64,000 bases of DNA from an uncultured Planctomycetia bacterium (GTDB taxonomy: Bacteria > Omnitrophota > Gorgyraeia > JABMRN01 > RBG-13-46-9): contig CAZYPU010000002.1 of NCBI GenBank assembly GCA_964649665.1, forward strand, positions 5,855 to 69,854, in the 5' to 3' direction. Numbering within the stretch: the first letter of the stretch is position 1; each line of letters starts with the position of its first letter. The notes under the pieces are model-generated. The model was not told the DNA's origin and searched no databases. It saw only the letters and a program-made list of their open reading frames with translations. A program made the translations under genes and the position numbers. Below, piece after piece: positions 5,948-62,877 of this stretch.

Positions 5948-5949
5948 TA

Positions 5950-7029: not shown

Positions 7030-7039
7030 AAACCTTTAC

Positions 7040-7069
7040 AAAGAGGTGCCAGGCACCTTTTTGTATTTC
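7040..7069 (+). terminator. hairpin plus T-rich tail after the hydrolase gene
   Basis: AAAGAGGTGCC-A-GGCACCTTTTT followed by GTATTTC. A related half-copy lies inside the gene's 3' end. Confidence 0.5.
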
Positions 7070-7072
7070 TTC

Positions 7073-7101
7073 TTGCAACCCGCACCGTTTTGATATATAC
7101 T
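7073..7101 (+). promoter_or_regulatory. sigma70-like promoter for otsA (TTGCAA-17-TATACT)
   Basis: Hexamers with 17-nt spacing read directly. The -10 ends 11 nt before the ATG at 7113 and no SD is visible. Confidence 0.45.
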
Positions 7102-7112
7102 GATAATTACCT

Positions 7113-8579: not shown

Positions 8580-9319
8580 AAAGGAAGATAAAAAACGCTA
8601 AAAAAATAATATTTTTTTTAGACTACGACGGCACCCTCACGCCCATAAGAAAAATCCCCTCCCTCGCCCGCATAGGAAAAAAATCCAAAAATCTTCTGGA
8701 GGAATTATCAAAAAGACCCACGTTTAAAGTTTTTATAATAAGCGGCAGGTCACTAAAAGACGTCAAAAATTTAATAGGCGTAAAATCAGTCTATTATATC
8801 GGAAATCACGGGATAGAGCTGGCCGGGCCCGGACTTAAATACGTGAATAAAAACGCGAAAAAACTAAGAGCCGTTATACGGAAAAGCTATAACGAGTTAA
8901 CGCGTTGCGTGAAATTAAAAGGGGTGATAGTTGAAAACAAAACCTATACCCTGAGCGTCCATTACAGGCTGCTTCGGCTTTCCAGGGTCGCGGCGTTTAT
9001 AAAAAAATTCAGCCGCATAACGGAAGATCTTAAAAAGAATAAGAAAATCAGTATTACCGAAGGGAAGAAGGTGTTCGAGGTCAGGCCCGCTGTGAAATGG
9101 GATAAGGGCGAAATCGTAAAATGGATATTGAAAAAAAACAAAAAATGCTTGCCAATTTGCATAGGTGATGATATAACTGACGAGGACGCGTTCCGCGCTC
9201 TTGGAAAAAGGGGTATTAACATTCTTGTTTCGGTACGGTCGCGCAAGACGAATGCCCGGTACAGACTGCGATCGCCGGGAGAAGTCGCAGGATTTCTGGA
9301 GTGGATATTAACGCTATGA
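8540..9319 (+). CDS. otsB: trehalose-phosphatase (HAD family)
   Basis: HAD motif I FLDYDGTLTPI and motif III GDDITDEDAF. It is the only in-frame ATG. It overlaps the otsA end by 40 nt. Confidence 0.8.
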   Translation: MGRKISGRIKEDLKRKIKNAKKIIFFLDYDGTLTPIRKIPSLARIGKKSKNLLEELSKRPTFKVFIISGRSLKDVKNLIGVKSVYYIGNHGIELAGPGLKYVNKNAKKLRAVIRKSYNELTRCVKLKGVIVENKTYTLSVHYRLLRLSRVAAFIKKFSRITEDLKKNKKISITEGKKVFEVRPAVKWDKGEIVKWILKKNKKCLPICIGDDITDEDAFRALGKRGINILVSVRSRKTNARYRLRSPGEVAGFLEWILTL

Positions 9320-9996
9320 ACTGCTGGACTAAAAAAGCCAAGAATCCGTTTCATTTTTACACAAGCGTAACGCTCAAAGAGCTTACCGGGAAAAAAGCGA
9401 AAAATCTAAGAGAGCTCGTCGAAATTGTCAAGGAAGTCCCCGGCTCCGTCATCTATTATCACACCCACGTTTTTCTCCAGCGACAGCACTCTTTTTCTCC
9501 GGACCCGCCCAACGCCTTCGCCAACTGGGTCTCGTGGACCCTGGGCGAATACAAATTAGGCGAGGAACTCTCCAGCATAGATATATGCGCCTTCAACACG
9601 ATAAGGGAGTTGAGAGAAAAAATAATAAACGTTATTGAAAATCATCTTTTCGAGAGCAAAGAGCCTCTCCGGTATGCGCCCCGGGGAAGGGAATTCGATT
9701 TTATAAAAGCCCACAGCTTCGTCGTGCCGACCGGCTTTACGGCGCACAACCTAAAAGAGTTCGGGATGATCCTCGAAAAAGTCACGATCTATTCGATATA
9801 TTTCCATATTTTCGAGGCGCGCCTGAGGCTGGAAAAGGGATTCAACGATTTTTCTTTCTGGCTGGGCACTTCCGCCGGCGCCCCGGAAGTGGCGAAGGAC
9901 ATAGCGGCGCTTGATCCATACACCTTTAACGTGGAGGCCTTGAGGCGCAGGATTCTTGATATTATGAGAAACTGGTGCAATAAAGGACAGGCTTAA
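9316..9996 (+). CDS. conserved hypothetical protein between otsB and treT
   Basis: Clean ORF. ATG at 9316 forms an ATGA overlap with the otsB stop (the track start is a GTG at 9301). I recognise no motif with certainty. Confidence 0.5.
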   Translation: MNCWTKKAKNPFHFYTSVTLKELTGKKAKNLRELVEIVKEVPGSVIYYHTHVFLQRQHSFSPDPPNAFANWVSWTLGEYKLGEELSSIDICAFNTIRELREKIINVIENHLFESKEPLRYAPRGREFDFIKAHSFVVPTGFTAHNLKEFGMILEKVTIYSIYFHIFEARLRLEKGFNDFSFWLGTSAGAPEVAKDIAALDPYTFNVEALRRRILDIMRNWCNKGQA

Positions 9997-9997
9997 G

Positions 9998-11215
9998 ATG
10001 GGGATAGCGGATTACGAAAGCATCGTAGGCAAGGGCATAATCTACGAGCTCGGCCTTATAAGCAAAAAACTTAAGAAGAAAAAGATCCAGTGTATAAATT
10101 CCACGAAGCTCGGAGGCGGCGTCGCGGAAATACTTTCGCGGATTATCCCGCTTCTCAACGACCTGGGGATAGACGCCACATGGGACGTTATAGAGGCCGA
10201 TCCCGACTACTTCAACGTTACCAAGGCCTTCCATAACGCCCTGCACGGAAAAAGCGAAGGTATTACAAAAAGCATGTTTGACAAATTCCTTTCTACGGGT
10301 AAGGATATCCTGCGAAGCACCAAAATATACGGCGACATTGTTTTCGTCCACGACCCGCAGCCGATCATGTTGATCGAAAATAAGAAAAGCGCGAATAAGT
10401 GGATCTGGCGCTGTCACGTTGACGTATCAAAGCCGTATATGGAGGTATGGGAATTCCTGAAGCTCTTTATAGAGCAGTACGACATTTCCGTGTTTTCGAA
10501 CCCGAGTTTCGCGCGTCAGCTGGAAATTCCGCAGTTTCTCGTAACCCCGTCCATTGACCCTTTCAGCGAGAAAAACCGCGAACTTACGCGGGAAGAAATA
10601 GAAAGCGTGTTGGAAAAATACGAAATAGAGAAGGGTAAGCCCATTATAACCCAGGTTTCGCGGTTTGATTACCTGAAGGATCCCGTGGGCGTAATCGAGG
10701 CCTACCGCCTCGTAAAGAAATACGTGGACTGCCAGCTCATTCTGGCCGGCAACCGCGCCGCCGACGACCCGGAAAGCGACACGGTTCTCGCCGAGGTCAT
10801 GCAGGAGAAAGGGAACGACCCGGACATACACGTTCTTGTGATAGAGCCGGAAAAGAACGATTTTGACATAAACGGTATCCAGCGCGCTTCAAGCGTGATA
10901 ATCCAAAAATCCATACGAGAAGGGTTCGCCATAACCGTAACCGAGGCCCTCTGGAAGGCGAAACCCGTAGTCGCCTCAGCGGTCGGCGGTATCCCGCAGC
11001 AGATAAGGCACCGTCACAGCGGACTTCTCTGCCACACAGTGGGCGGCGCCGCCCTCATGATACGCGAGCTCCTGAATAACCCGGAATACGCCACGCGTCT
11101 CGGCAAAAATGGCAAGGAGCACATCCGGCGTAACTTCTTATCCACCCGCCACTTACGCGACTACATGCTTCTATTTCTCTACCTCTACAATCCCGACGAT
11201 ATAATTTACCTGTAG
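9998..11215 (+). CDS. treT: trehalose glycosyltransferring synthase-like GT4 glycosyltransferase
   Basis: Close resemblance to archaeal TreT as I recall it (INSTKLGGGVAEIL, FNVTKAFHNALHG, WIWRCHVD, PSIDPFSEKN, KPIITQVSRFD, IQKSIREGFAITVTEALWK). Confidence 0.75.
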   Translation: MGIADYESIVGKGIIYELGLISKKLKKKKIQCINSTKLGGGVAEILSRIIPLLNDLGIDATWDVIEADPDYFNVTKAFHNALHGKSEGITKSMFDKFLSTGKDILRSTKIYGDIVFVHDPQPIMLIENKKSANKWIWRCHVDVSKPYMEVWEFLKLFIEQYDISVFSNPSFARQLEIPQFLVTPSIDPFSEKNRELTREEIESVLEKYEIEKGKPIITQVSRFDYLKDPVGVIEAYRLVKKYVDCQLILAGNRAADDPESDTVLAEVMQEKGNDPDIHVLVIEPEKNDFDINGIQRASSVIIQKSIREGFAITVTEALWKAKPVVASAVGGIPQQIRHRHSGLLCHTVGGAALMIRELLNNPEYATRLGKNGKEHIRRNFLSTRHLRDYMLLFLYLYNPDDIIYL

Positions 11216-11744: not shown

Positions 11745-13025
11745 ATGGGATATACCATAACCGAGAAGATACTGCTGGCGCACACTAAGGCGAAGGCCGT
11801 TAAGCCGGGCGATTTCATAACCGCGAAGGTGGATTTCTGCTTTGGAAACGACATAACCGCGCCGATCGCTATAGGAGAATTCGATAGGATAAAGGCGAAA
11901 AAGGTCTTTGACAAAACAAGGATCGCCCTTATTCCGGACCACTTCACGCCCGCAAAGGACATGAAAAGCGCCAACCAGGCGAAGGTTTTGCATAGCTTTG
12001 CCAGGAAGCACGATATAGCGCATTATTATGAGGTGGGAAGGATGGGTATTGAGCACGTCCTTCTTCCGGAGAAGGGCCTCGTTTTACCGGGCAACCTTGT
12101 AGTTGGCGCGGATTCGCACACATGCACATACGGCGCGCTCGGGTGCTTTTCCACCGGGGTGGGGTCAACGGACCTTGCGTTCGCTTTTGTGACAGGGGAG
12201 TGCTGGCTCAAGGTCCCGGAGACGATAAAATTTGTTTATCACGGCAAGCCCAAGAAGTGGGTTACCGGTAAGGACCTTATCCTTTATACGATAGGCAGGA
12301 TATGCACTGACGGGGCGCTCTACAAAGCGATGGAATTTTCCGGGAGCGCGATTAAAAACCTACCGATGGACGATAGGTTCACGATGTGCAACATGGCCAT
12401 CGAGGCCGGCGCCAAAAACGGCATTATCGAACCGGACGAAACCACGGTAAGTTACGTAAAAAAAGCGATAAGAAAAAATAAGCCCGGGAGAAAGAGTTTC
12501 AAATTATATAAAAGCGACAAAGACGCCAGGTATGCCGAAGTTATAGAATACGATGTTTCCAAAATCGAGCCGCAGGTGAGCCTTCCGCATCTGCCGAGCA
12601 ACGCCAAACCCGTGAATAAGGTGAAAAATGTACTTATTGACCAGGTAGTCATCGGCTCGTGCACTAACGGAAGGATAAGCGATCTGGAAGCGGCTGCGAA
12701 GATACTCAAAGGGAAAAAGGTGAAGCAGAGTACGAGATTGATCGTTATACCTGCGACGCAGGCGGTTTACCTGGAGGCGGTAAAAAGAGGGTTTGCTAAA
12801 ATTTTCGTCGAAGCGGGGGGTGTGTTTTCCACGCCGAGTTGCGGCCCATGCTTAGGCGGGCACCTTGGCATACTTGCCGAAGGCGAGAGGTGCGTGGCTA
12901 CAACGAACAGGAATTTTGTCGGCAGGATGGGCCACCCTAAATCCGAGGTGTATCTTGCCTCGCCGGCTGTCGCGGCCGCAAGCGCCGTGCGCGGCCGGGT
13001 TGCGCATCCGAAGGAAGTCGCATGA
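11745..13025 (+). CDS. leuC: 3-isopropylmalate dehydratase large subunit (aconitase family, short type)
   Basis: [13 protein letters not shown] and GSCTNGR Fe-S ligand motifs. About 420 aa, the LeuC/HacA size class. Followed by the small subunit and the dehydrogenase. Confidence 0.85.
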
Positions 13026-13058
13026 AAGTAACGAGGTTGTCGAAAAAGCCCTCCAATT

Positions 13059-13170
13059 GTCATTCTGAGCCCCGCCCTTCGCTAGCGCTCAGGATAAACT
13101 CCGCGGGGCGAAGAATCTTAACGATAAGATCCTTCGTCGGGCTGACTTCGTCAGCCCTCCTCAGGATGAC
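13059..13170. repeat. family-2 multi-hairpin repeat, long variant
   Basis: GTCATTCTGAG...CTCAGGATGAC outer stem encloses CCCCGC/GCGGGG, CGAAGAATCTT/AAGATCCTTCG and GCTGAC-TTC-GTCAGC hairpins. Lies between leuC and leuD. Confidence 0.7.
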
Positions 13171-18550: not shown

Positions 18551-19837
18551 ATGAAGGTTACCGGAAGCAAGAAGATGGAAGATGAGTTGCGCGTAAGAGG
18601 CGAAGTCATATCGTCATCCATTAACGCTGTTGCTATCGCGGATCTTAAAGGGAATCTGGCATACGCAAACGCGTCTTTTTTGAAAATGTGGGGATATGCC
18701 TCCGGAGAGGTTCTGGGAAAACCGGCCGCGAAATTCTGGCACACAGAAAAAAAGGCATTAGAGATAATCGAGGCATTGCGCAAGAAGGGGGGGTGGATCG
18801 GTGAATTGACAGCAGTAAAAAAAGACGGCGCACACTTTGATGTCCAACTTTCCGCAAGTATGGCGAAAGACAATAGCGGTAAACCCGTCTGCATGGTGGC
18901 TTCTTTCGTAGATATCAGCGCACATAAGAAGGCAGGCGAAGAACTCCTGGCAAGCGAGGTGAAGTACAGGACGCTTCTTGAAGGGCTTCCGCAGAAGATA
19001 TTTCTTAAGGACAGGAATCTAGTTTACGTATCCTGCAATCGGAACTATGCCCGCGATTTAAAAATTAAATCAGATAAAATCTCCGGAAAGACGGATTATG
19101 ACCTGTTCGCGAAAGATTTAGCTGAAAAATACCGCACAGACGATAAGAAAATTTTGGCGTCCGGAAGAAAGTTAGATATCGAGGAGAGGTACATAGAGAA
19201 AGGCCGGGAGATCTTAGTTCGCACTGTCAAAGAACCTCTTAAGGATACAGACGGCGCTACCATCGGGGTTTTGGGTATTTTCTGGGACGTTACCGAAGAG
19301 AAAAAGATACGGGATGAAAAAGAAAAACTTTTACACGACCTTGGCGAGCGCGTCAAAGAGCTCGATTGCCTATACGGGCTTTCTTTGATCGTAGAGAAGC
19401 CAGGAATCTCGTTAGAAAGGCTATTTCAGGAGGCGGTTAAAATAATCCCGCCAGCATGGCAGTACCCGGATATTACGCGCGCCAGAATAGTTTTTGAGAA
19501 CAAGGAAGTCAAGAGCCCTGATTTCAGAACGGCCAGGTGGAAGCAGGAAGCCGATATAATAGTGCACGGGAAAAAGGCAGGTATCATCGAGGTTATTTAC
19601 GTAGAAAAAAAACTGGACGTAAACGGAGACCCATTTTTAAAAGAAAAAAGGAAACTGATAGACGCCCTTGCCGAGCGGTTTGGAAGAATCACCGAACACA
19701 AGAGAACGGAGGAAGAATTAAAAAAGAAAATGCGGGACCTGGAGAGATTCAGTAAAATCGCGGTGGATCGGGAGCTTAAAATGAAAGAGCTTAAAGCGCG
19801 CATAAAGGAGCTCGAAGCAAAACTCAGGGAAAAATGA
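18551..19837 (+). CDS. cytoplasmic sensor protein: two PAS domains, a GAF-like module and a coiled-coil tail, no output domain
   Basis: PAS S-box-like repeats (FLKMWGY..., DGAHFDVQLS; NRNYARDL...). KELDCLYGLS...QYPDITRARIVF module. Heptad-rich C-terminus. Confidence 0.7.
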   Translation: MKVTGSKKMEDELRVRGEVISSSINAVAIADLKGNLAYANASFLKMWGYASGEVLGKPAAKFWHTEKKALEIIEALRKKGGWIGELTAVKKDGAHFDVQLSASMAKDNSGKPVCMVASFVDISAHKKAGEELLASEVKYRTLLEGLPQKIFLKDRNLVYVSCNRNYARDLKIKSDKISGKTDYDLFAKDLAEKYRTDDKKILASGRKLDIEERYIEKGREILVRTVKEPLKDTDGATIGVLGIFWDVTEEKKIRDEKEKLLHDLGERVKELDCLYGLSLIVEKPGISLERLFQEAVKIIPPAWQYPDITRARIVFENKEVKSPDFRTARWKQEADIIVHGKKAGIIEVIYVEKKLDVNGDPFLKEKRKLIDALAERFGRITEHKRTEEELKKKMRDLERFSKIAVDRELKMKELKARIKELEAKLREK

Positions 19838-21903
19838 AAAAGCAAACGCGCTACAAAAGAAGCGTTAGGTTCAAGGCAACGCAGGTTATTTGCGGTGCCA
19901 CATTAATTATTGCGGTTATAGGGTTAAGCGGGGGGTATTTTTTGGGATTTAGATTAGTGCGTACTCTAATCGGAGAAAATTACGCAAGAATGGCCGGGTT
20001 GCTCGCAAACTCCGTTGATAGAATTATTATCGAAGAGATAAATGATGTAAAAACCTATGTGGACAGCCCATTCTGGAAGATGGCGATTGAGGAGAGTAAT
20101 TTAAGGTACAAAACCATGAGCCCCGAAGCTGCCAAAAGATTTTTTCTGGATACCGATGAGAGGTGGAAGGAAGCCCTTCCCGATAGCCCACTCGTTAAGC
20201 AATATTTAGATAGCACGCTTAGCATAAGATTAAGAAAACTGGCCAAGAATAACAAAACTGTAGTGGAAATTTTTGCTACCGATAAAAAAGGCGCCTTGGT
20301 GGCATCCTCGGGCAAAACGAGTGATTTTTATCAGGCAGACGAAGAATGGTGGCAGCGTGCTTTCGCTGGCGGCAAGGGCAAGGTTTGCATGGGAAATATC
20401 GAGTTTGATGAGTCAGCCGATGTATGGGTTTTATCTATCGCCGTTCCTATCAGGGACGAATCCGGCCAGGTAGTAGGGGTGTGCAAATGCCTGGAGGGGA
20501 TCGAAAGATTTATGGGCCACCTGAAGGATTTTAAAATCGGTAAAGAAGGACACGCTGTTCTGGTTAACGAAAAAGGCAATATCATAATTCATGGGGAAAT
20601 AAAGCCGTTGTCGATGAAATTCGCAAAAGAGGAAATTCTTCGGAAGATTTATTCGACCGAAAGAAAATGGGAGATAATAAAAGACCCGCATATTCATAAA
20701 GGAAAAATTTTTGTCGCCTATGCTGAAATTTTGCACCCTTTCCTTATAGAAAGCGGAATAAGGTGGGTAGTTTTTGTAGACCATGATGTGGATGAGGTAT
20801 TCGCGCCTTTAAACAAATTGTTTTTACAAATGTCTGTTGTCGTGGCCATAGTGATATTAAGCCTTATCCCCGTAGCGTTTATTTTCGGCGGAGTACTTGC
20901 AAAACCATTACGAAAACTTAGCGAAGCAACGAAAGAGATCGCAAGAGGCAACTGGGATTACGACCTCAAGATTAAAACAGGCGACGAAATCGAAGAACTC
21001 GCTGTTTCGTTTAGAAAGATGCTCTCGAGTATTAGAGAGAAACAAAAGGAAATCACAGAAGCCAAGGACAAATTTCAGAACCTGTCAGAAACCCTGGATG
21101 CGAAGGTCAGGGGGCGCACTAAGGAATTGACCCAAGCCCAGGAGGCGACGTTAAATATATTGGAAGATCTGCAGGAAGCGAAAAATAAGATAGAAGAGAC
21201 CTTGAAAATAAAGTCTGAATTTACCTCTGTGGTATCGCACGAGTTGAGAACGCCGCTTACGGCAATTAAGGAAGGCATTGCTATAGTTCTGGATGGGACA
21301 GCCGGAAGAATTAACCCGGAACAGAAGGATTTTCTGGATACGGCAAAGCGAAACGTCGACCGCCTTGCGCGCCTCATAAACGACGTTCTCGATTTCCAGA
21401 AATTGGAAGCCGGCAGGGTAGAGTTTAGAATGGAAGAAAACGACATAAATGAGGTTGTCAGGGAAGTCGAAAAAGAAATGGCACCTGTCGTAAAAGAGAA
21501 AAAGCTGGATTTTTCCGTTAAACTTGACAAAAAAATACACAAAATAAAATTCGACAGAGACACCGTCATTCAGGTGCTTACGAATCTTGTCAGTAATGCC
21601 GTAAAATTCACGGAAAAAGGCGCCATTACGATTATTACGGACTACGACCGAAAGGATAACGCAATTCTTGTTTCAGTAAAAGATACCGGCCCGGGGATTA
21701 AAAAAGAAGATTTACCGCGCCTTTTCCGGAGATACGAACAACTGGAAAAAGGCAAGGGAAGAAAGACCGGCGGAACAGGCCTTGGCCTTGCGATTTCGAA
21801 AGAAATAATCACGCGGCATAGCGGAAAAATCTGGGCGGCATCAGAACCCGGCAAGGGCTCGACCTTTTGCTTCGTTTTGCCTGTTAAGGAACGAAGGAGT
21901 TAA
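19834..21903 (+). CDS. sensor histidine kinase (TM / Cache-like periplasmic domain / TM / HAMP / HisKA / HATPase_c)
   Basis: H-box SHELRTPLTAI, N-box LVSNAVKFT, G-boxes DTGPGI and GTGLGLAISKEI. HAMP after the second TM segment. Confidence 0.85.
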   Translation: MKKQTRYKRSVRFKATQVICGATLIIAVIGLSGGYFLGFRLVRTLIGENYARMAGLLANSVDRIIIEEINDVKTYVDSPFWKMAIEESNLRYKTMSPEAAKRFFLDTDERWKEALPDSPLVKQYLDSTLSIRLRKLAKNNKTVVEIFATDKKGALVASSGKTSDFYQADEEWWQRAFAGGKGKVCMGNIEFDESADVWVLSIAVPIRDESGQVVGVCKCLEGIERFMGHLKDFKIGKEGHAVLVNEKGNIIIHGEIKPLSMKFAKEEILRKIYSTERKWEIIKDPHIHKGKIFVAYAEILHPFLIESGIRWVVFVDHDVDEVFAPLNKLFLQMSVVVAIVILSLIPVAFIFGGVLAKPLRKLSEATKEIARGNWDYDLKIKTGDEIEELAVSFRKMLSSIREKQKEITEAKDKFQNLSETLDAKVRGRTKELTQAQEATLNILEDLQEAKNKIEETLKIKSEFTSVVSHELRTPLTAIKEGIAIVLDGTAGRINPEQKDFLDTAKRNVDRLARLINDVLDFQKLEAGRVEFRMEENDINEVVREVEKEMAPVVKEKKLDFSVKLDKKIHKIKFDRDTVIQVLTNLVSNAVKFTEKGAITIITDYDRKDNAILVSVKDTGPGIKKEDLPRLFRRYEQLEKGKGRKTGGTGLGLAISKEIITRHSGKIWAASEPGKGSTFCFVLPVKERRS

Positions 21904-21904
21904 T

Positions 21905-22270
21905 ATGGCCAAGAAAGTATTAGTAGTTGACGACGAACCGGATATTCTTAAAATCGTGTGTTTTCGGCTGAAAAAAGCCGGCTACGAAGTTAAGACAGCC
22001 TCTGACGGAAAGGCCGCGCTTGATTTAATAGAAAAAGACCGCCCTGATTTAATCCTTCTTGATCTTCGTATGCCTGTAATGGATGGATACGAGGTTTGCA
22101 GGAAGATAAAGTCAGATGAGAAGTTGGGGGATACGCCGATTATTTTTATTACCGCAAGTTCCGGGGCTACAGTAAAGGATAAAGTCCGCGAATACAAAGC
22201 GGATGATTATATCATAAAACCTTTCGAGCCGGAGGAATTGATCGCGAAAGTGAAAAAATTTATAAGTTAA
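21905..22270 (+). CDS. stand-alone response regulator receiver (REC)
   Basis: VLVVDDEPD...LILLDLRMPVMDGYE...IIKPF receiver motifs. Confidence 0.85.
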   Translation: MAKKVLVVDDEPDILKIVCFRLKKAGYEVKTASDGKAALDLIEKDRPDLILLDLRMPVMDGYEVCRKIKSDEKLGDTPIIFITASSGATVKDKVREYKADDYIIKPFEPEELIAKVKKFIS

Positions 22271-22276
22271 GAAAAA

Positions 22277-22314
22277 GACCGGGGCGGTTGCCAAATATGG
22301 CAACCGCCCCGGTC
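22277..22314. terminator. perfect 16-bp stem-loop after the REC gene (no T-tract)
   Basis: GACCGGGGCGGTTGCC-aaatat-GGCAACCGCCCCGGTC. Preceded by an A-run and followed by TGAAGG, so intrinsic-terminator status is uncertain. Confidence 0.4.
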
Positions 22315-22326
22315 TGAAGGACAGGC

Positions 22327-23772
22327 ATGCCGAAAGCGAACATTTTAGTAGTAGATGACGAAATCGACGTAACAAAAGTCGTAGGCGCCAGGTTAAAAAA
22401 AGCGGATTTTGACGTTTCTACGGCAAAAGACGGTAAAGAGGGTTTATCTTTTGCGAAGAAGGCGGTACCCGACCTCATTCTTCTGGACATAATGATGCCC
22501 GGCATGGACGGCTATGAAGTGGCCGAGCGTCTCCAGAAGGACCCCAAGACCTCGCTTATCCCCATAATCATGCTTACGGCGAAGGCATCCTCCGATGATA
22601 AAATAAAGGCGTTAAAAATGGGCATCGATGATTACATAACGAAGCCCTATGACGCCAACGAGCTCATAGCGAGGGTGGAGGCAGTATTAAGAAGGACAAA
22701 AAAAGAGCCCTTTCCGAGCGCCGTGCCCCTCTCTCTCGATGAGAAAAAAAGAATACAACTATTGGAGAAAATGATAAGCGAAAAGGTCATGAAACTTACG
22801 CTGGAATATAACATGGCGAGTTTTAACGGATATTCCTGGCCGTATGCGGCCGAATTTTTCAATGCAAAAGACGGCTCGGAAATCAATCACATTAATTTCA
22901 TTGCGGAAAAAGGCTGCTTTGACAGAGAATTTTTCGACAAGGTGCTCCTGTGTCCGCACTGCGGCCATCATGACATTAATGTTCGCGAGACCTGCCCTTC
23001 GAATCACAGCGCGAATGTTTCGGTAGCGGAGATGATACATCATTTCAGGTGCGGCTACGTGGGCACCATAGCGGAATTCCAGCAGGGTATCCGGTATGTC
23101 TGCCCAAAATGCGGAACTGAACTTCGCCAGGTCGGCATCGATTATGACAAGCCGGGCCAGAGCTACATATGCCATGATACAAAAGAAAAATTTACCGAGC
23201 CCGACGTCTGGTGCCAGTGCAGGAACTGCAAGAAGCAGTTCGAAATCGACGATGCCGTAAGGAGCGACATTTTCTCTTACGTGCTTAACGAAAGGGGCAA
23301 ACAGACGGTTGAGACGGGTAGATTTTCCGAGATTAATCTGGAAACCGCGATTGTTGACGAAGATGTTGATTTGTATAACCTGCGGTATTTCAAGAAACAA
23401 TTTTCAGACGAAACAGAACGCGCAAAGAAATTTAAAAGGACATTTTCCCTTATCTTTGTCCGCATCCTGAATTTCGATAAAGTGGTGGAGGATCTGGGCA
23501 TTACGCGCCTCAGGTCCGTCCTTAAACAGATCGCCTCAATACTTAAGGAAAATTTATGGGACGTCGATACCCCCGCGCGTTACGATAAAAACGCGTTTAT
23601 CACCCTTCTGCCGGAAGCGGATATGGAAAAGGCAAAGGCGCTGGCAGATTCACTCAGTAAAAAAATAGCGGATTTGACAAGAGAAAATCTGCAAATAAAA
23701 ATAAACACGGTTTCTTATCCGGAGGATGGCGATACGGAAGACGCTCTGATTGAGAAGCTGTTGAAAACATAA
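22327..23772 (+). CDS. response regulator: REC / Cys-rich zinc-ribbon-like module / degenerate GGDEF-like domain
   Basis: REC (ILVVDDE, LLDIMMPGMDG, ITKPY). CPHC...CPKC...CQCRNC cluster at 22951-23229. C-terminal cyclase-like fold with RYDKNAF in place of RxGGDEF. Confidence 0.7.
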   Translation: MPKANILVVDDEIDVTKVVGARLKKADFDVSTAKDGKEGLSFAKKAVPDLILLDIMMPGMDGYEVAERLQKDPKTSLIPIIMLTAKASSDDKIKALKMGIDDYITKPYDANELIARVEAVLRRTKKEPFPSAVPLSLDEKKRIQLLEKMISEKVMKLTLEYNMASFNGYSWPYAAEFFNAKDGSEINHINFIAEKGCFDREFFDKVLLCPHCGHHDINVRETCPSNHSANVSVAEMIHHFRCGYVGTIAEFQQGIRYVCPKCGTELRQVGIDYDKPGQSYICHDTKEKFTEPDVWCQCRNCKKQFEIDDAVRSDIFSYVLNERGKQTVETGRFSEINLETAIVDEDVDLYNLRYFKKQFSDETERAKKFKRTFSLIFVRILNFDKVVEDLGITRLRSVLKQIASILKENLWDVDTPARYDKNAFITLLPEADMEKAKALADSLSKKIADLTRENLQIKINTVSYPEDGDTEDALIEKLLKT

Positions 23773-23776
23773 GCCT

Positions 23777-23937
23777 GTCATCCTGAGGAGGCCTGTCCCC
23801 CACCCTACGGGTCGTAGACCCGGAGGGAAAGGCCGACGACCGAAGGAAGTCCCGCATACCACAATGAACAATATAGGCCATGCGGGACGAAGGATCTTAA
23901 CGTAGAGATTCTTCGCCCCTTCGGGGCTCAGAATGAC
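23777..23937. repeat. family-2 composite repeat (GTCATCCTGAG...CTCAGAATGAC)
   Basis: Outer stem plus GTCCCGCAT/ATGCGGGAC, GAAGGATCTT/AGATTCTTCG and CCCC-TTCG-GGGG hairpins. Carries the 28-nt module ACCCTACGGGTCGTAGACCCGGAGGGAA. Confidence 0.7.
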
Positions 23938-23974
23938 AAAGTGGGGAAACTCCTCGCAAGAAAGAGGGTAATGC

Positions 23975-24694
23975 ATGAGGCTAAGAAAAATAGAAGCGTT
24001 TACGTCTACCAAGGAGCAGATCGAAAGGCAAAAGCCGAAGAAGGGCCTTCCGAAGCCGGTTAAGATATTCATATTTATCCTGATACTGTTTTCGCCCGTT
24101 TTCATATGGAAGGCCATTACTCATAATGCGGTATATTGCAACGGGCTTGTCATGGGGCAGCTCGAGCTTGAAATGGCGGGAGTGGACTTTCAGAAGATTC
24201 GCTCGGATGTAGACGGAGAAATTACTGAACTCCCCGCTCAAAAGGGCCGGAGGGTAGAGAAGGGAAGCCTCCTTGCCGTCATAAAAATAGAAAAAGACGG
24301 TAAGGTGGATCATGTTGAAATGAGGTCTAAAAACGAGGAACTGATAGTGAGCGAGAGCAGAAAAGTCGGGGATTTTATTAAAAGGGGCGATGTAATCTAC
24401 GGCGTCCTGCCGGTAGGGACGTATTGGGTGGAGGCGTTTGTTCCCGAGAAATATATACACCAGGTTCGCATGGGGGGAGAAGCGGTGATTTTTGAGGGCT
24501 CTTCCCGAAAGAGGTTCAGCGGAAAAATTGATTCCGTATCGGCGGAAGTCGAGACAATGCCGAAGATGTTCTCCATGTACCATTTTTCCCCCAAGAGGGT
24601 TTTTACCGCGAGAATATCGTTAACCGGCAGGGACATACCCCCGTACATACTTAAGTTCGGCATGAGGGTAAAGTGCAAGATCTATAAGAAATGA
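23975..24694 (+). CDS. short HlyD-family membrane-fusion-like protein (no obvious alpha-hairpin)
   Basis: N-terminal TM segment, lipoyl-like halves (GEITELPAQKGRRVEKGSLLAVI; VGDFIKRGDVIYGVL) and a beta-barrel-like segment (YWVEAFVPEKYIHQVRMGGEAVI...GKIDSVS). Only 239 aa. Confidence 0.6.
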   Translation: MRLRKIEAFTSTKEQIERQKPKKGLPKPVKIFIFILILFSPVFIWKAITHNAVYCNGLVMGQLELEMAGVDFQKIRSDVDGEITELPAQKGRRVEKGSLLAVIKIEKDGKVDHVEMRSKNEELIVSESRKVGDFIKRGDVIYGVLPVGTYWVEAFVPEKYIHQVRMGGEAVIFEGSSRKRFSGKIDSVSAEVETMPKMFSMYHFSPKRVFTARISLTGRDIPPYILKFGMRVKCKIYKK

Positions 24695-25986
24695 TACAGG
24701 ACTTTTTCGCTAATTTTTTTGAATACCTGCAGTTCTGCGCGGAGGACGTCCTCAGCCGTTCGCCGATCGCGATATTTTTTCTTTTTGCCCCCGCCCTTTT
24801 ATTCGATACGGCGCGCTATTATGTCACCAACACGATCATCTTCGCCTTAAGCCTCTTTGAAAAAGAATCTTCCGGAGAAGAAGCCGTGCCGTACCTCCCC
24901 TCGGTCAGCGTAATAATTCCCGCGCGCAACGAAGGCGAGAGGCTAAGGTTTACTCTTGATACAATACTGGAAAATAGCTACCCGAATTTCAAGGTTATCG
25001 TATCGGACGATTCTTCGGAGGACGATACGCTCCAGCTCTGCAAGCCTTATGTGGATAAGGGGCTGATTACGTATGTGCGAACAAGCGTGCGCAGCGGAAA
25101 ACCCGCGGCGCTCAACTACGCTTTCAAGTTTTCCAAGGGAGAGATTATTATTTACTTTGACGGGGATATCGCCGTAGATAGGGATGCCATAGCGGAAGCG
25201 GTAAAACCTTTTAAGGACCCCAGGGTAGGGGCAGTAAGTGGTAATGTAAAGGCGCGCAATGATAGAAAGACCCTTGCTACAAGATTGCAGGCGGCGGAAT
25301 ACGGCATGACAATAGCGGTCGGCAGGCGCTGGCTTGCGCTCGTGGACAGGCTGCAGATAGCGTCCGGCGCATTCGGTTGTTTCAGGAGAGAGATCCTGAT
25401 CGACATTAAGGGGGCGGACCCCGAGTACGGAGAGGATTTGGATCTGACGCTAAAGGCGAGAAAGCTGGGATTTAAGGTTGCTTTTGCGCCGAAGGCGATC
25501 GCAATGACGGATGTTCCGGAGGCCTGGGCGAGGCTGTTCAGTCAGCGTGTAAGATGGGACCGCTGCTACATAAGATTGAACTTGCGAAAACACCGCGATA
25601 TGTTCGATTTTCACGTATTTAAGTGGCAGGATTTCATTGCGGGACTTGAGGATATACTGTTTAACCTGGTTCTTCTTCTCGTCTTTCCGGTATACGTAGT
25701 GTTCATACTTGTCTTCGTCCCGCAGCTTTTTCTTTTCATCCTGACGGTGACTTACCTCTTTTATACCGTTATGAATGCCGGACAATTCGCTATCGTGGCG
25801 CTTCTTTCGGAAAGACCGGGGCGTGACGCAATCTTCATTTTATATGCGCCTTTATTTTTTATGTACAGCCTTTTTTTAAAGGCGGCGCGGATACTGGCCT
25901 ACTTCCTTGAATTTATCAGGTCCGATTTTATGAAAGACGGTTTTTTCCCAAAAAAAATCTGGAGGAACATGCAGGAGTACAGATGA
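24691..25986 (+). CDS. membrane-embedded processive family-2 glycosyltransferase (PgaC/NodC/BcsA-like synthase core)
   Basis: VSVIIPARNE, SDDSSEDD, DGD, GAFGCFRRE, GEDLDLT and QRVRWDR (QxxRW) motifs. TM segments at both ends. ATGA overlap with the upstream gene. Confidence 0.8.
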   Translation: MIQDFFANFFEYLQFCAEDVLSRSPIAIFFLFAPALLFDTARYYVTNTIIFALSLFEKESSGEEAVPYLPSVSVIIPARNEGERLRFTLDTILENSYPNFKVIVSDDSSEDDTLQLCKPYVDKGLITYVRTSVRSGKPAALNYAFKFSKGEIIIYFDGDIAVDRDAIAEAVKPFKDPRVGAVSGNVKARNDRKTLATRLQAAEYGMTIAVGRRWLALVDRLQIASGAFGCFRREILIDIKGADPEYGEDLDLTLKARKLGFKVAFAPKAIAMTDVPEAWARLFSQRVRWDRCYIRLNLRKHRDMFDFHVFKWQDFIAGLEDILFNLVLLLVFPVYVVFILVFVPQLFLFILTVTYLFYTVMNAGQFAIVALLSERPGRDAIFILYAPLFFMYSLFLKAARILAYFLEFIRSDFMKDGFFPKKIWRNMQEYR

Positions 25987-27281
25987 AAATATTCGCCGGA
26001 ATTATAATTCTCCTTTTATGCTGCGCGCCGAATTTATTCTCTGAAGAAATTCCACTCGGGTTGACCCTTGACGATTGCGTAGAAACTGCCGTCGCGAACA
26101 ACCAGAATCTCTTAATGGCCCGCGAAGAAATAAAAAAGTCCGAAGGCTATCTTTTGGAGCAGTTCGCCGAGTTCCTGCCCGAAGTATACCTCAATTATCG
26201 TTATGTCACCACGAGCAGTCCGGAGGTCCGGCGCATCGCAAACGATGTTTTTTTATATGCGGAAAGCACCGCGGGCCTTCATCTGGAAGAAGATATCTTC
26301 AAGGGGGGAGAGAGAATTTATAGATACAGAAGCGCCTCACTCGCCGTCAGTAAGGCAAGGGAGTCTTACATGGAGATACATGATAAACTCGTTCTCGATA
26401 TAAAAACGGCTTATTACGATCTGCTGCTCGCGGAAAACCTTATCTCGCTTTACAGCGAGTCCAAAAGAAGGATGGAGGCCTACGCTTCAAAACTTACGAG
26501 AAAAAGCAAGCTGGGGGATGTTACGAAATACGCCGTTTTAAGGGCAAAAATCGAGATAGAGATCGTGAACTCGGACCTTATCGACGTAGAGAAGAAAAGG
26601 ATACTCTATAAGGCAAAGATACAGAAACTGCTTATGCTGGACAAGGTCCGGGATATTTCCCCGCTGGACGCCCTAACGTACCCCGAAATAGAAACTCGCG
26701 AGGAGGGGTATTCACTGGAAAGCCTGCTCCCGGCGGCAGAGAACAAAAACCGACGAATAAAAGCCGCCAAGCTGGCGAAGAAAATAGGAAAAGCCGAAAT
26801 TGACGCCGCGATCGCAAAGACGGGCCTAAGAGCCAGCTTGAGAAGCGCCTGGTACAAGAGTTCCGATAAATTCGACCTTAGTTCGCATTATTTTTACGAC
26901 TGGTCGTTCATGATAAACATTACGGTGCCGCTTTTCGACGGCTTCAAAACCCCTTCCCTCATCAATCAGTCGAGGTCCGAATATTCAAAGCTCGCCGCCG
27001 CCGAAAGTGCCGCGAGAAAAGATGTTTTCTGGGAGCTCGAAGACGCCTCGAGCGAACTTAAGAAAACAAGGCCGCTTCTTGAGAACCAGAAGTCGCTCGC
27101 CGGTTATGCTAAGGAGGGCGTGAACATGGTGCTGGTGCTTTATGACAGGGGTGAAGGCAGCGAATGGGATGTCATAGACGCGCACAGAAATTATATAAGG
27201 GCGGAATCGAATCTCGCGAGGTTTGTAAGGGATTATAATGTTCTGGCGGCGAAAATAAATTATCTGATTTCGGAAAATTAA
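25983..27281 (+). CDS. TolC-family outer membrane efflux protein
   Basis: Signal peptide and two-repeat OEP architecture (LTLDDCVETAVANNQNLL..., ...YNVLAAKINYL). ATGA overlap with the GT2 gene. Confidence 0.8.
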   Translation: MKIFAGIIILLLCCAPNLFSEEIPLGLTLDDCVETAVANNQNLLMAREEIKKSEGYLLEQFAEFLPEVYLNYRYVTTSSPEVRRIANDVFLYAESTAGLHLEEDIFKGGERIYRYRSASLAVSKARESYMEIHDKLVLDIKTAYYDLLLAENLISLYSESKRRMEAYASKLTRKSKLGDVTKYAVLRAKIEIEIVNSDLIDVEKKRILYKAKIQKLLMLDKVRDISPLDALTYPEIETREEGYSLESLLPAAENKNRRIKAAKLAKKIGKAEIDAAIAKTGLRASLRSAWYKSSDKFDLSSHYFYDWSFMINITVPLFDGFKTPSLINQSRSEYSKLAAAESAARKDVFWELEDASSELKKTRPLLENQKSLAGYAKEGVNMVLVLYDRGEGSEWDVIDAHRNYIRAESNLARFVRDYNVLAAKINYLISEN

Positions 27282-27296
27282 ACAAGAGGTGAAATT

Positions 27297-27692
27297 ATGG
27301 AAAAGGCAAAAGTTTTGCTGGTCGACGACGAAATGGATCTCATTATGATCATGGGGAAAAGGATAAAGAAATGGGGTTACGATTTGATGGAGGCTGCAGG
27401 CGGCAAAGAAGCCCTTACCGCCGTAAAGTCCGGAGGCCCTGATATCGTGATTCTGGATTACATGATGCCCGATATGGACGGTATCAGCACTCTAAAGGAA
27501 ATACGTAAAGTAAATGCGGACATACCGGTTATCATGTTTACCGCATTTCCGGACAAAAAATCCATCGAAGGCACAGAAGCGCTCGGCGTAAGCGCGTATA
27601 TTCCGAAACTTAGCATGTTTCCCACCGGCGAATCCGCGCTGAAGGCAGCCCTTAATATGGCGGAGAAAAAATTAAGGAAGAAAGGTGACTGA
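27297..27692 (+). CDS. stand-alone response regulator receiver (REC)
   Basis: VLLVDDEMD...VILDYMMPDMDG...IPK receiver motifs. 15 nt after the TolC gene. Confidence 0.85.
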   Translation: MEKAKVLLVDDEMDLIMIMGKRIKKWGYDLMEAAGGKEALTAVKSGGPDIVILDYMMPDMDGISTLKEIRKVNADIPVIMFTAFPDKKSIEGTEALGVSAYIPKLSMFPTGESALKAALNMAEKKLRKKGD

Positions 27693-29229
27693 ACAGCGGG
27701 AAACCTGGAAATCGCACTGGGGCATGATAGCGGCTATGATAGGGACCGCTATCGGCCTCGGTAATATCTGGAGATTTCCTTACCTTTGCGGCAAGTACGG
27801 CGGAGCGACCTTCCTTATTCCTTACGTAATCCTTCTATTCGGAATAGCGATTTTCGCGATGATGTGCGAGTGGGCCCTCGGCCGCCACACCAAGCGCGAG
27901 GCCCTCGGCGCTTTTGACAAGATAAAATTTCCGTTCGGAAGGGACATCGGCGCCTGGGGCATAATCGGGCCGTTCTTCCTGTATTCCTATTATATAGTCA
28001 TAACAAGTTGGGTTATATTTTTCATATTCGCCTCCCTTGAAGGGCTTTATTTCGGTAAAAACACCGAAACCTTTTTCGCCTCTTTTCTTGGAAGTAAATG
28101 GATATTTGCCGTGCATTTCGCTTCCGTCTGCATTACAAGCTGGATCCTTGCCATGGGCGTGCAAAAGGGCATAGAGAGGGCGTGCAAAATTATGATACCC
28201 GCGCTTTTTGTGCTCCTTATAATTGTGGCGGCAAGAAGCGTGACGCTTCCGGGCGCGGCAGAGGGCGTGGAATTTTACATGAGGCCGAGGTGGGATGGGC
28301 TGCTTAACATTGAGACATGGGTTGCGGCGCTGGGCCAGGTATTTTTTACGCTTAGCCTCGGCATGGGCGCGATGCTTATTTACGGCTCCTATCTTAAAGA
28401 CGAATGGGGCATACCGGCGAACGCCATGAGCGTGGCGCTGGGGAATACCTCGGCGAGCATCCTCGCGGGGTTTGCTATTTTCCCCGCGGCCTTCGCGCTC
28501 GGATTCGGAAAGACCATAGGCGGGGCAGAGTCCATAGGCCTTACTTTTTTCGTCCTGCCGAAGGTATTTGAGATGATGCCCGGAGGCCACTTCTTCGGGG
28601 GGCTATTTTTTATCCTGCTTGCCTTCGGCGCCATATCGAGCGCCATAAGTATCCAGGAGCCGGCCATAGCGTGGCTGAAAGACGAGGCCGGATGGTCAAG
28701 AAAGAGATCGGCATTTTTTACCGGCGTTATATTGTGGATAATGGGGTTTCCTTTTATTCTTAACGGCTTTATTAAAGGCACCCTCGGCGCGAAACTGGCG
28801 CTGCTTTCGAAAATGGATATTATCATAGGGCAGCTCGCCATACCTGTATTCGGTATTCTTGCGATAATCGCCGTCGGGTACTTCATGAAAGACCGCGGCT
28901 TTGACGAAATGAATAAAAACGCGAGAGTCAAACTCAGCCATACCTGGCTTAAGCCCTGGATCAGGGCAGTCGTGCCGATTTTCATCGGGCTTTTATTCAT
29001 ATTGACGCTTCTTAAAATTTTGCAGGAGAAAGGCGTCATACCGCCTGTAATTCCTTCGAAAGCGGCGCTTGAGTTTACCCCGATAGGCATAACGCCCGTT
29101 ACGATCGTCATGATCGTATTCATATGCGTTCTCTTCTGGGGCGGTTTTCTGTACACGACGGTGAAGGTGCTGACGGTAGAGAAAGACAAGAAACGGAGAG
29201 TAAAACGTGGACTTCACCATTCTCGCTGA
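27685..29229 (+). CDS. sodium:neurotransmitter symporter (NSS/SNF) family transporter
   Basis: GLGNIWRFPYLCGKYGGATFLIPY signature and about 11-12 TM segments. The GTG start overlaps the REC stop. Confidence 0.85.
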   Translation: MTEQRETWKSHWGMIAAMIGTAIGLGNIWRFPYLCGKYGGATFLIPYVILLFGIAIFAMMCEWALGRHTKREALGAFDKIKFPFGRDIGAWGIIGPFFLYSYYIVITSWVIFFIFASLEGLYFGKNTETFFASFLGSKWIFAVHFASVCITSWILAMGVQKGIERACKIMIPALFVLLIIVAARSVTLPGAAEGVEFYMRPRWDGLLNIETWVAALGQVFFTLSLGMGAMLIYGSYLKDEWGIPANAMSVALGNTSASILAGFAIFPAAFALGFGKTIGGAESIGLTFFVLPKVFEMMPGGHFFGGLFFILLAFGAISSAISIQEPAIAWLKDEAGWSRKRSAFFTGVILWIMGFPFILNGFIKGTLGAKLALLSKMDIIIGQLAIPVFGILAIIAVGYFMKDRGFDEMNKNARVKLSHTWLKPWIRAVVPIFIGLLFILTLLKILQEKGVIPPVIPSKAALEFTPIGITPVTIVMIVFICVLFWGGFLYTTVKVLTVEKDKKRRVKRGLHHSR

Positions 29230-62633: not shown

Positions 62634-62693
62634 AGTGTAGCATAACGGGTATTCGTGTCAAGTGTTATCGTTGGGTAGGCGTTTCCTCGGTTT

Positions 62694-62829
62694 GTCATCC
62701 TGAGGCGCCCTGAAAGGGTGCCGTCTCCGACCCTACGGGTCGTAGACCCGGAGGGAAGGATCTTTCGTTAAGATTCTTCGGCACTGCGTGCCTTAGAATG
62801 ACAAGGGTGAAGGGCTCGCTCAGGATGAC
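62694..62829. repeat. family-2 composite repeat
   Basis: GTCATCCTGAG...CTCAGGATGAC with an internal TTAGAATGAC arm and the same 28-nt module ACCCTACGGGTCGTAGACCCGGAGGGAA (62730-62757) seen at 23802-23829. Confidence 0.7.
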
Positions 62830-62877
62830 ACAAGGAGAAAATAGGATAATGTAAAATATTGTGGGCACTTTCAACAT

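Follow-up and report, generated by a model that had tools for sequence, protein, structure and literature searches.

Within a 64,000-nucleotide stretch of an Omnitrophota contig (positions 5,855 to 69,854 of CAZYPU010000002.1, assembly GCA_964649665.1; the whole stretch is called the window below), three overlapping genes encode a HlyD-type membrane-fusion protein (MFP), a membrane-embedded glycosyltransferase of family 2 (GT2) and a TolC-family outer-membrane factor (OMF). We interpret this locus as an exopolysaccharide secretion system of the synthase-dependent type, with the glycan synthase in the inner-membrane position that a pump has in a tripartite assembly, and we put the probability of this interpretation at roughly 60%. 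That the synthase might stand in the pump position had been raised in a preliminary description of this DNA, and comparative genomics now supports the idea at the level of the genes. Homologues of the window proteins assign the organism to Candidatus Omnitrophota. What we say of function, complex formation, the polymer and regulation is drawn from sequence, predicted structures and gene context.

The MFP gene (23975-24694, forward strand; 239 amino acids) overlaps the GT2 gene (24691-25986, forward strand; 431 amino acids) by ATGA at 24691 (AAATGATAC), and the GT2 gene overlaps the OMF gene (25983-27281, forward strand; 432 amino acids) in the same manner at 25983 (AGATGAAA). From the OMF stop codon there are 15 nt, with a GAGGTG ribosome-binding site, to the start of a gene for a lone receiver (REC) domain (27297-27692, forward strand; 131 amino acids; Pfam Response_reg, 1.8e-23). 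Upstream of the operon, at 22327-23772 on the same strand, is the gene for a 481-residue protein made up, according to Pfam, of REC, TackOD1 and degenerate GGDEF domains; it is referred to here as RTG and is proposed to regulate the synthase. The coordinates and lengths of these five open reading frames (ORFs) are as first described, as are both ATGA overlaps and the REC proteins on either side. The hidden Markov model (HMM) classification that had been suggested places the MFP in HlyD_3/HlyD_D23, the GT2 in Glyco_tranf_2_3 and the OMF in OEP (Pfam); for the GT2, NCBIfam and an AlphaFold2 (AF2) model were used as well. Among the ORFs of the 64-kb window no pump gene was found to adjoin the operon, in keeping with the earlier account. 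The sole ABC-like ORFs are a tandem ABC ATPase (574-2247) and an SMC protein (57832-61416), and both were ruled out as pump candidates, the former being soluble and 22 kb away.

Fold, family matches and intact catalytic motifs allow us to group the GT2 with the membrane-embedded synthases that polymerise a glycan and translocate it, although in such a predicted structure the length of the product is not readable from the fold. Pfam returns Glyco_tranf_2_3 (5.9e-33), Glycos_transf_2 (9.3e-32) and Chitin_synth_2 (1.6e-09). The sequence contains DGD157, GAFGCFRRE226, GEDLDL247 and QRVRW285, and residues D157, D249, Q285 and W289 are invariant in an alignment of 62 homologues. Hydrophobic segments are located at residues 20-38 and 314-399; Pfam detects no PilZ domain in the protein, the chain of which stops ~25 residues past the last transmembrane (TM) helix. 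The motifs, the TM segments at both ends and the lack of a PilZ domain had all been recognised before. The best NCBIfam match is PgaC_IcaA (TIGR03937; 8.8e-46, residues 41-381), but with 156.7 bits against a curated equivalog cut-off of 422.3 the GT2 is a relative of this family and not an equivalog. NodC (1.1e-28) and, weakly, the CelA family (6e-11) also match, both under the NCBIfam cut-offs; the Glyco_transf_21 and HpnI families match too, and E. coli PgaC aligns with 30% identity over 288 amino acids (E 3e-33, BLASTP). The AF2 model, calculated from the 62-sequence alignment (pLDDT 94, pTM 0.91), has helices within residues 2-56, a GT-A domain, an interface helix with QRVRW and three long C-terminal helices (312-408). 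The top PDB matches in Foldseek are Chlorella virus hyaluronan synthase (HAS) and Xenopus HAS1, with E values of about 2e-18 and TM-scores of 0.70-0.74 over the full length (~431-448 columns); they are followed by the non-processive archaeal PcManGT and then by BcsA (TM-score 0.54-0.59) and Chs1. With HAS at the top of the structural ranking and PgaC_IcaA at the top of the NCBIfam ranking, the earlier placement of the GT2 among processive membrane synthases stands.

An alternative product has to be considered at this point. NodC has the same fold and makes pentamers, and the GT2 might likewise make a short oligosaccharide, or a glycolipid, which the MFP and OMF would carry over the envelope. 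The NodC, Glyco_transf_21 and HpnI matches are compatible with this, as is the best PDB sequence match of the catalytic domain, the non-processive archaeal mannosyltransferase PcManGT (PDB entry 6yv7), and product length is not revealed by the fold. We nevertheless regard a short product as distinctly unlikely: the full-length fold including the TM region is nearest to HAS and the best family is PgaC_IcaA, QxxRW and the other processive-synthase motifs are invariant, the export of small amphiphiles by an MFP and an OMF normally takes an energised pump, and none is present. The module also includes, in other genomes, a domain of GH18-like, endo-hydrolase type (see below), which suggests a polymer that needs trimming.

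The MFP matches HlyD_3 (3.9e-15), HlyD_D23 (2.4e-10) and Biotin_lipoyl_2 (4.8e-06) in Pfam. It has a cytoplasmic tail of ~26 residues, which is all of its cytoplasmic part and in which Pfam finds no PilZ domain, a single TM segment (24-50) and then periplasmic lipoyl and β-barrel parts; in the AF2 model (pLDDT 73), residues 27-51 form a TM helix and what follows is almost entirely strands. The nearest solved relative is BesA (PDB entry 4kks; 1.1e-08 by sequence and 1.6e-12 by fold), a Borrelia adaptor without an α-hairpin (PMC3807786). The preliminary description had judged the MFP too short to hold an α-hairpin, and both the model and an alignment with the module MFPs of other phyla demonstrate this. 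The latter have the hairpin as a rule; in the Omnitrophota MFPs and in one Caldisericaceae MFP it has been lost cleanly (~100-150 residues). All 13 homologues of ~239 amino acids are found on Omnitrophota-type contigs.

The third gene was thought to encode a TolC-family channel, and Pfam agrees: the product matches OEP (9.3e-41) with two repeats and has a signal peptide in an N-terminal hydrophobic segment (residues 1-25). Against TIGR01844 it scores 93 bits, under the cut-off of 225, and it is thus a divergent member of the TolC family. The OMF gene also follows the GT2 gene in the related loci L001, L003, L006 and L007. A family of ~700-residue neighbours in 29 loci likewise consists of divergent OEP proteins (Pfam values of 2.2e-26, 1e-13 and 1.2e-09 in three members), and hhalign relates the Omnitrophota OMFs to the N-terminal parts of these longer module OMFs with a probability of 94% (E 1.4e-07). 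A restriction of the OMF to Omnitrophota was considered and dropped; the narrow, Omnitrophota-only profile (eight ORFs) had missed the ~700-residue OEP family. The long OMFs bear a conserved C-terminal domain of ~190-270 residues for which there is no Pfam model. This GH18-like domain, common on the counterparts in other phyla, is absent from the window OMF.

We used the GT2 as the seed of a scan of one genome per species, which gave 573 confirmed loci, the best 80 of which were kept. Neighbours were annotated by iterated local HMMs and counted in the 52 loci flanked on each side by 5 kb or more, the OMF counts being lower bounds. A TackOD1-domain gene is found beside the GT2 gene in all 52, an MFP gene near it in 47 and an OMF-family gene in at least 24, many of the OMFs being fused to the GH18-like domain. 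The order regulator-MFP-GT2-OMF is kept in five distinct Omnitrophota-type contigs with GT2 identities of 58-85%. Carriers of the module also include Planctomycetota (among them anammox Brocadiales), Bacteroidota, Balneolaceae, KSB1, Nitrospirae, Deferrisomatales, alpha-, beta- and gamma-proteobacteria, Cloacimonadota, Caldisericaceae, Gemmatimonadota and Sumerlaeota. A reciprocal scan of metagenomes, seeded with an alignment of five sequences of the OMF C-terminal domain, found 44 loci with a fused OMF; an MFP, a TackOD1 regulator and a GT2 are present in 30 of the 31 that have sufficient downstream sequence, in the order OMF-MFP-regulator-GT2. The remaining locus, L116 (Ga0116144_10000004), has the fused OMF and the MFP, with no TackOD1 or GT2 detected downstream. 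The seeds of the census were the GT2 and the OMF-associated domain, and its TackOD1 genes are those reached from these two seeds. There are at least three gene orders across phyla (RTG-MFP-GT2-OMF, RTG-GT2-OMF-MFP and OMF-MFP-RTG-GT2), which suggests selection on gene content and not simple inherited synteny.

In cultured bacteria the module occurs on plasmids. That of Phyllobacterium zundukense (NZ_CP104972.1, ~793-797 kb) has a 'hypothetical' protein (TackOD1), a GT2 and an 'HlyD family' protein; that of Methylocystis iwaonis SD4 (NZ_CP143315.1, 248-253 kb) encodes a TackOD1 protein, a GT2, an MFP, a stand-alone OMF-associated domain and a protein that the annotation pipeline PGAP names 'TolC family outer membrane protein', all as five separate genes. 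On a Sinorhizobium medicae T10 plasmid (L170; NZ_CP149879.1, ~1.164-1.167 Mb; a record without annotation), the gene of a related GT2, which matches the family profile with E 2e-101, is followed by an MFP gene and an ORF of 109 residues resembling TackOD1. The module may have been reduced or have decayed here, in a genus with good genetics.

These counts bear on whether the MFP and OMF could be the partners of an ABC, RND or MFS pump with its gene elsewhere, the GT2 lying between them by chance. MFP and OMF families are classically the partners of pumps, and there is room for pumps beyond the 64-kb window. The co-occurrence with GT2 and TackOD1 is, however, reciprocal, crosses phyla and persists in several gene orders; ATGA coupling is found on both sides of the GT2 gene; and clustering of all neighbouring ORFs (~160 loci overall) gave no recurrent ABC, RND or MFS family. 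We therefore consider a distant pump very improbable. The preliminary description had asked whether conservation ties the MFP and OMF to the GT2 or to a pump, and in both the forward (47/52 and at least 24/52) and the reciprocal (30/31) counts it is the GT2 that they accompany.

Several observations nevertheless weigh against a tripartite synthase-exporter at the window locus. Only ~185 residues of the MFP are periplasmic, and a periplasmic domain is lacking from the synthase, so that it is uncertain whether the adaptor could reach the tip of a TolC-type channel of normal length; BesA, the only solved adaptor without a hairpin, works alongside an RND pump whose periplasmic domain is large (PMC3807786). 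With no hairpin on the MFP either, its contact with the OMF is the weakest step of the model for the window locus. About half of the full-flank loci show no nearby OMF. The nearest GT2 relatives outside the clade with all three genes (L005, L008 and L012-L014; 50-56% identity, ~480 amino acids) keep the regulator but have neither MFP nor OMF within 8 kb, so a synthase of this kind can apparently work without linked partners. On the side of the synthase, the non-processive 6yv7 is the closest sequence match of the catalytic domain, and the predicted fold does not separate a long-chain polymerase from a NodC-like oligosaccharide synthase. On the side of the regulator, the window protein lacks the I-site arginine, a repeat element parts its gene from the operon, and TackOD1, being rich in zinc ribbons, could bind DNA.

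With the MFP-OMF contact as the weakest step, the main rival is that the MFP acts as an accessory or co-polymerase in the manner of Alg44 or PgaD and does not dock on the OMF, which would then be a separate pore with no continuous conduit. Three facts favour it: the MFP lacks the α-hairpin that normally touches TolC, many loci have an MFP and no linked OMF (47 versus at least 24 of 52), and Alg44 pairs an MFP-like periplasmic domain with a porin that is not TolC (PMC8892547). Elsewhere in the same module, however, hairpin-bearing MFPs are usual; OMF and MFP genes adjoin almost without exception in the reciprocal set; the OMF of the window is operon-encoded and translationally coupled; and in rhizobia TolC is genetically required along with BgsB (PMC13438883). 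On balance we judge a co-polymerase without docking to be unlikely and retain the tripartite arrangement with the synthase in the place of the pump.

The gene most constantly associated with the synthase is that of the regulator, which PGAP labels a 'hypothetical protein'. In RTG, Pfam identifies Response_reg (2.5e-31), TackOD1 (1.5e-44), which is the part formerly described as Cys-rich, and GGDEF (8.4e-17). Residues D10, D11, D54, T84 and K106 of the receiver and the Cys/His residues of TackOD1 are invariant in 31 homologues, and by sequence the receiver carries the full conserved residue set of a phosphorylatable response regulator. The GGDEF domain is degenerate, as had been noticed: its signature reads RYDKNAF, with no GG[DE]EF motif. 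The I-site (RxxD, five residues before the degenerate signature) is WDVD in the window and WxxD or WxxN in its clade. Every GGDEF domain found fused to TackOD1 in the related loci is catalytically degenerate, and RxxD is kept in 29 of the 53 degenerate GGDEF domains of these loci. In almost all loci the regulator gene immediately precedes that of the GT2 or the MFP, and the start and stop codons frequently overlap (L003, L013, L045 and L118 are examples). Other arrangements replace the fused GGDEF domain: Pirellulales-type regulators are REC-PilZ-TackOD1 proteins with RxxxR...DxSxxG motifs, where the Pfam PilZ matches are below threshold but recur at the same position, and other Planctomycetes have REC-TackOD1 together with a separate, intact RxxD-GGDEF cyclase gene between the regulator and the GT2.

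Since the TackOD1 protein is repeatedly paired with modules for cyclic di-GMP (c-di-GMP) and no receptor is built into the synthase, it fits an adaptor that relays signals, and the sequence data point to a regulator that passes both phosphorylation and c-di-GMP signals to the synthase. PssE (PMC4125290) and PelD (PMC12564702) are precedents for the activation of exopolysaccharide synthases by degenerate-GGDEF receptors, and BcsA and Alg44 for PilZ domains as c-di-GMP receptors (PMC8892547). The function of TackOD1 was termed obscure in 2018, when archaeal members were noted in type IV pilus loci (PMC5847659). The preliminary description had favoured control by a REC protein or adaptor of a synthase without PilZ, in place of direct c-di-GMP binding. 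Control through such an adaptor is supported by the TackOD1 gene in 52 of 52 loci. c-di-GMP is probably not absent from the family: the relatives bear RxxD I-sites, PilZ domains or cyclases dedicated to the module, although the I-site of the window is WxxD. For the Omnitrophota clade, the loss of the I-site arginine and the kinase and REC genes around the module suggest phosphorylation as the main input. c-di-GMP signalling would nonetheless appear to exist in this organism, as the window encodes an apparently active GAF-GGDEF cyclase (61413-62633, reverse strand; GGEEF and RxxD intact), which is among the small number of larger reverse-strand genes.

RTG could instead be the transcription factor of the operon, with its zinc ribbons on DNA, and not a post-translational activator. 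The five CXXC motifs and the single HXXC motif of TackOD1 are reminiscent of double zinc ribbons and the PriA insert (PMC5847659), REC proteins with output domains are mostly transcription factors, and a spacer of ~200 nt separates the regulator from the operon in the window. In archaeal REC-wHTH-TackOD1 proteins, on the other hand, a DNA-binding domain is present in addition to TackOD1 (PMC5847659). Start/stop coupling frequently joins the regulator gene to that of the GT2 or the MFP, as would suit partners in a fixed stoichiometry, and the recurrent pairing is with I-site GGDEF and PilZ domains, which act on enzymes in known exopolysaccharide systems (PMC4125290, PMC8892547). We hold the transcription-factor role to be somewhat unlikely and keep to RTG as an activator of the synthase.

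A link to archaeal TackOD1 through a 'Thermoproteota archaeon' locus (L087; GCA_042576685.1, JBHPEX010000028.1) was rejected; the contig has sigma-70 and LpxB genes, so that it is bacterial and probably mis-binned. Besides a REC-epimerase fusion and the TackOD1 regulator, L087 contains two GT2 paralogues in tandem. In both L003 (4421-5806) and L087 (6240-7625), a gene just before that of the TackOD1 regulator encodes a fusion of REC with an NAD-dependent sugar epimerase/dehydratase, which would be a response regulator with a nucleotide-sugar enzyme as its output.

The likely substrate is indicated by relatives of the window operon. The profile of the OMF-associated domain matches a 275-residue 'putative GH97' protein of Cellulomonas fimi (2.5e-13) and, weakly, GH18 chitinases. 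Its invariant DG(I/V)HLD(V/I)EP aligns with the chitinase motif DGIDLDWE, and MAY aligns with MTYD. Examples of the domain are found in L015 (10676-11488), L024, L052, L169 (8761-9354) and ~40 metagenome loci (L088-L141). GH18 catalysis employs the N-acetyl group of the substrate. A nucleotide-sugar dehydrogenase gene adjoins the module in ten loci; of five dehydrogenases that were typed, four are nearest to UDP-ManNAc/UDP-GlcNAc dehydrogenase types, one of them TviB-like (6.3e-139), and one is nearest to UDP-glucose dehydrogenase. The GH18-like motif, the dehydrogenases and the PgaC/NodC/HAS affinities of the synthase, taken together, suggest that the polymer is probably based on N-acetylhexosamine (HexNAc). 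The window itself has neither a GH18-like hydrolase domain nor a dehydrogenase.

The fusion of a GH18-like domain to the C-terminus of a TolC-family protein is an unusual architecture. In some Planctomycetes the domain is joined to an N-terminal part containing CBM30, and in some proteobacteria it stands alone. Stand-alone GH18-like paralogues of ~300 residues, often as two or three tandem genes, are also found in gut, rumen and fermentation metagenomes (L142-L167); they form a separate subfamily and have no GT2, MFP or TackOD1 nearby.

In the mechanism that we propose, the GT2 would polymerise a UDP-sugar, probably of the HexNAc type, and thread the chain through its own TM channel. TM-anchored MFP subunits would ring the periplasmic exit and guide the chain to a trimeric OMF, which would take it across the outer membrane. 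The cytoplasmic RTG would be the dedicated activator, in the role that PilZ, PgaD or PelD has elsewhere, relaying its signal to the synthase. The input would be chiefly REC phosphorylation by neighbouring kinases in the Omnitrophota lineage, and in other lineages also c-di-GMP, with an RxxD I-site, a PilZ insertion or a dedicated cyclase as the route. A GH18-like hydrolase domain, either fused to the OMF or encoded by a separate gene, may trim or release the polymer in other phyla, a step that the window version would do without.

Seen across phyla, these loci may form a widespread, as yet unnamed secretion family, a wider proposal that we offer tentatively and at somewhat less than even odds. 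Its core would be a HAS/PgaC-like synthase with TackOD1 and its shell an MFP, a TolC-family channel and a GH18-like hydrolase; TackOD1 would couple REC phosphorylation and/or c-di-GMP directly to the synthase, and a HexNAc product (e.g. chitin-like) would be exported through MFP and TolC without a pump. The Omnitrophota operon is the most compact and reduced form, with a hairpin-less MFP, a minimal OMF and no hydrolase, which makes it a good candidate for reconstitution and structural work. A dedicated OMF, co-inherited with synthase, MFP and regulator in many phyla, provides genomic evidence for the synthase/MFP/TolC model. TackOD1, a domain of bacteria and TACK archaea with an obscure role, gains a concrete and testable function and, if the proposal is true, would be a new kind of output domain. 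The natural swaps between I-site GGDEF, PilZ and a separate cyclase could show the signal path to a synthase without a receptor, and cultivable carriers are available in Methylocystis iwaonis SD4, Phyllobacterium zundukense, Thalassospira lucentensis DSM 14000, Prolixibacter and Gracilimonas.

The module is surrounded by signalling genes, and histidine kinase and REC genes are enriched around the loci of the Omnitrophota clade. Upstream of RTG are, all on the forward strand, a PAS-PAS protein (18551-19837), the stop codon of which overlaps by ATGA the start of a dCache-HAMP-HisKA-HATPase sensor histidine kinase (19834-21903; Pfam), and a single-domain response regulator (21905-22270; Response_reg, 1.1e-32). 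The kinase and this REC gene are also present in L001, and by adjacency the kinase is a candidate for the input kinase of the operon. A perfect 18-bp GC-rich hairpin at 22276-22315 (AGACCGGGGCGGTTGCCA...TGGCAACCGCCCCGGTCT), between the single-domain REC gene and the RTG gene, is likely to be a terminator or attenuator that parts the kinase/REC unit from the regulator. The REC-only gene that had been noted 15 nt downstream of the OMF gene is indeed there but is conserved only in the closest relative: it is present in L001 and missing at that position in L003, L006 and L007, and is thus a lineage-specific addition. Its stop codon is overlapped by the GTG start of an SNF-family (sodium:neurotransmitter symporter) gene (27685-29229, forward strand), which follows the REC gene in L001 as well, and not in L003.

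The spacer between the RTG and MFP genes is filled by an insertion with no part in the module, a copy (23777-23960, forward) of a dispersed repeat resembling MITE (miniature inverted-repeat transposable element) or REP (repetitive extragenic palindromic) sequences; the gap at this place in L001 is 33 nt. The repeat is ~170-200 bp long with common inverted ends, GTCATCCTGAG...CTCAGAATGAC, and has four copies in the window where 0.08 would be expected by chance, the others being at 12990-13170 (reverse), 62694-62880 (forward) and 62640-62829 (reverse), the last two nested near 62.7 kb. The ~200-nt leader of the MFP gene was considered as the site of a c-di-GMP riboswitch or another kind of RNA element, and the idea was set aside; Rfam gave no match there and the spacer is the repeat. 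Further upstream, the window encodes a second membrane GT2 (4310-5947; Glyco_trans_2_3), a GT20 protein (7113-8579; OtsA-like trehalose-phosphate synthase) and a TreT-like GT1 protein (9998-11215), and these genes (4310-11215) may form a trehalose or compatible-solute cluster. Nearly all long ORFs of the window (1-64000) are on the forward strand, GC skew is positive in 31 of 32 2-kb bins and AT skew in most, and the forward strand is purine-rich throughout. The uniformity of ORF strand and skew over the window fits a single replichore with strong gene-strand bias.

The tripartite synthase idea itself has been published for two systems. A cellulose secretion model of XcsAB with TolC has been put forward for the cyanobacterium Thermosynechococcus (Maeda 2018, as related in PMC12430437 and PMC8892547), and for BgsBA and TolC of Sinorhizobium a tripartite synthesis and export complex has been proposed (PMC13438883). 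In both proposals the TolC gene is unlinked; a 2025 review sees this as a weakness of the Xcs model and a ground for doubt, and treats operon-organised clusters as an open question (PMC12430437). As summarised in the accounts of Xcs, that system resembles the window locus in having an inner-membrane processive GT2, with a HlyD-family adaptor substituting for BcsB and a TolC-like channel for BcsC, and its periplasmic glycoside hydrolase XcsC is a parallel to the GH18-like domain of the module relatives. It differs in its unlinked TolC gene and, in the same accounts, in being without TackOD1, whereas the OMF of the window is translationally coupled and the MFP is hairpin-less. Bgs shares an operon with MFP and GT2 and a genetic requirement for TolC (PMC13438883). 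Its product is a mixed-linkage β-glucan and it uses the housekeeping TolC encoded elsewhere, whereas the window has a dedicated OMF; BgsA is cellulose-synthase-like with a C-terminal c-di-GMP-binding domain (PMC5567048), whereas signalling in the window would go through the separate REC-TackOD1-GGDEF protein. Measured against the Xcs/Bgs type, therefore, the window has the linked HlyD-family MFP and, at the level of gene linkage, the TolC-family channel, and its GT2 does not have the built-in c-di-GMP receptor of a BcsA-like synthase.

Other systems share single elements. Alg8/Alg44 also combines a GT2 with a single-pass protein that has a short MexA/HlyD-like periplasmic part (PMC8892547), but Alg44 has a cytoplasmic PilZ domain where the window MFP has a tail of ~26 residues, and alginate exits by the AlgE porin with AlgK. 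PgaABCD, the poly-β-1,6-GlcNAc system, offers the best family match (PgaC_IcaA), of similar size and TM layout; PgaD, the deacetylase/hydrolase PgaB and the TPR-porin PgaA are found neither in the window operon nor among the conserved neighbours, which have MFP and OMF instead. Class I HAS is the best whole-chain structural match, and UDP-sugar dehydrogenases are near some relatives as hasB is beside hasA; the identity is, however, ~17-20%, HAS works alone in a single membrane, and a two-sugar product is not indicated here. BesA of BesABC and the window MFP are both hairpin-less, so that the exit duct would be recruited differently from usual, but the partner of BesA is an RND pump with a large periplasmic domain and the window has no pump. 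PelD and PssE are likewise catalytically dead GGDEF domains encoded with an exopolysaccharide synthase; the window differs in having WDVD for RxxD and in the fusion of GGDEF to REC and TackOD1, a so far uncharacterised architecture. From classical tripartite efflux and type I secretion the window departs in both the energised transporter and the MFP hairpin, neither of which it has. The literature searched, the coverage of which was partial, yielded no published description of this gene set. Beyond the published tripartite idea, what the module adds is a dedicated, operon-encoded OMF, a synthase clade that is HAS/PgaC-like and not BcsA-like and that has no receptor of its own, TackOD1 as a partner and, in the relatives, a GH18-like domain.

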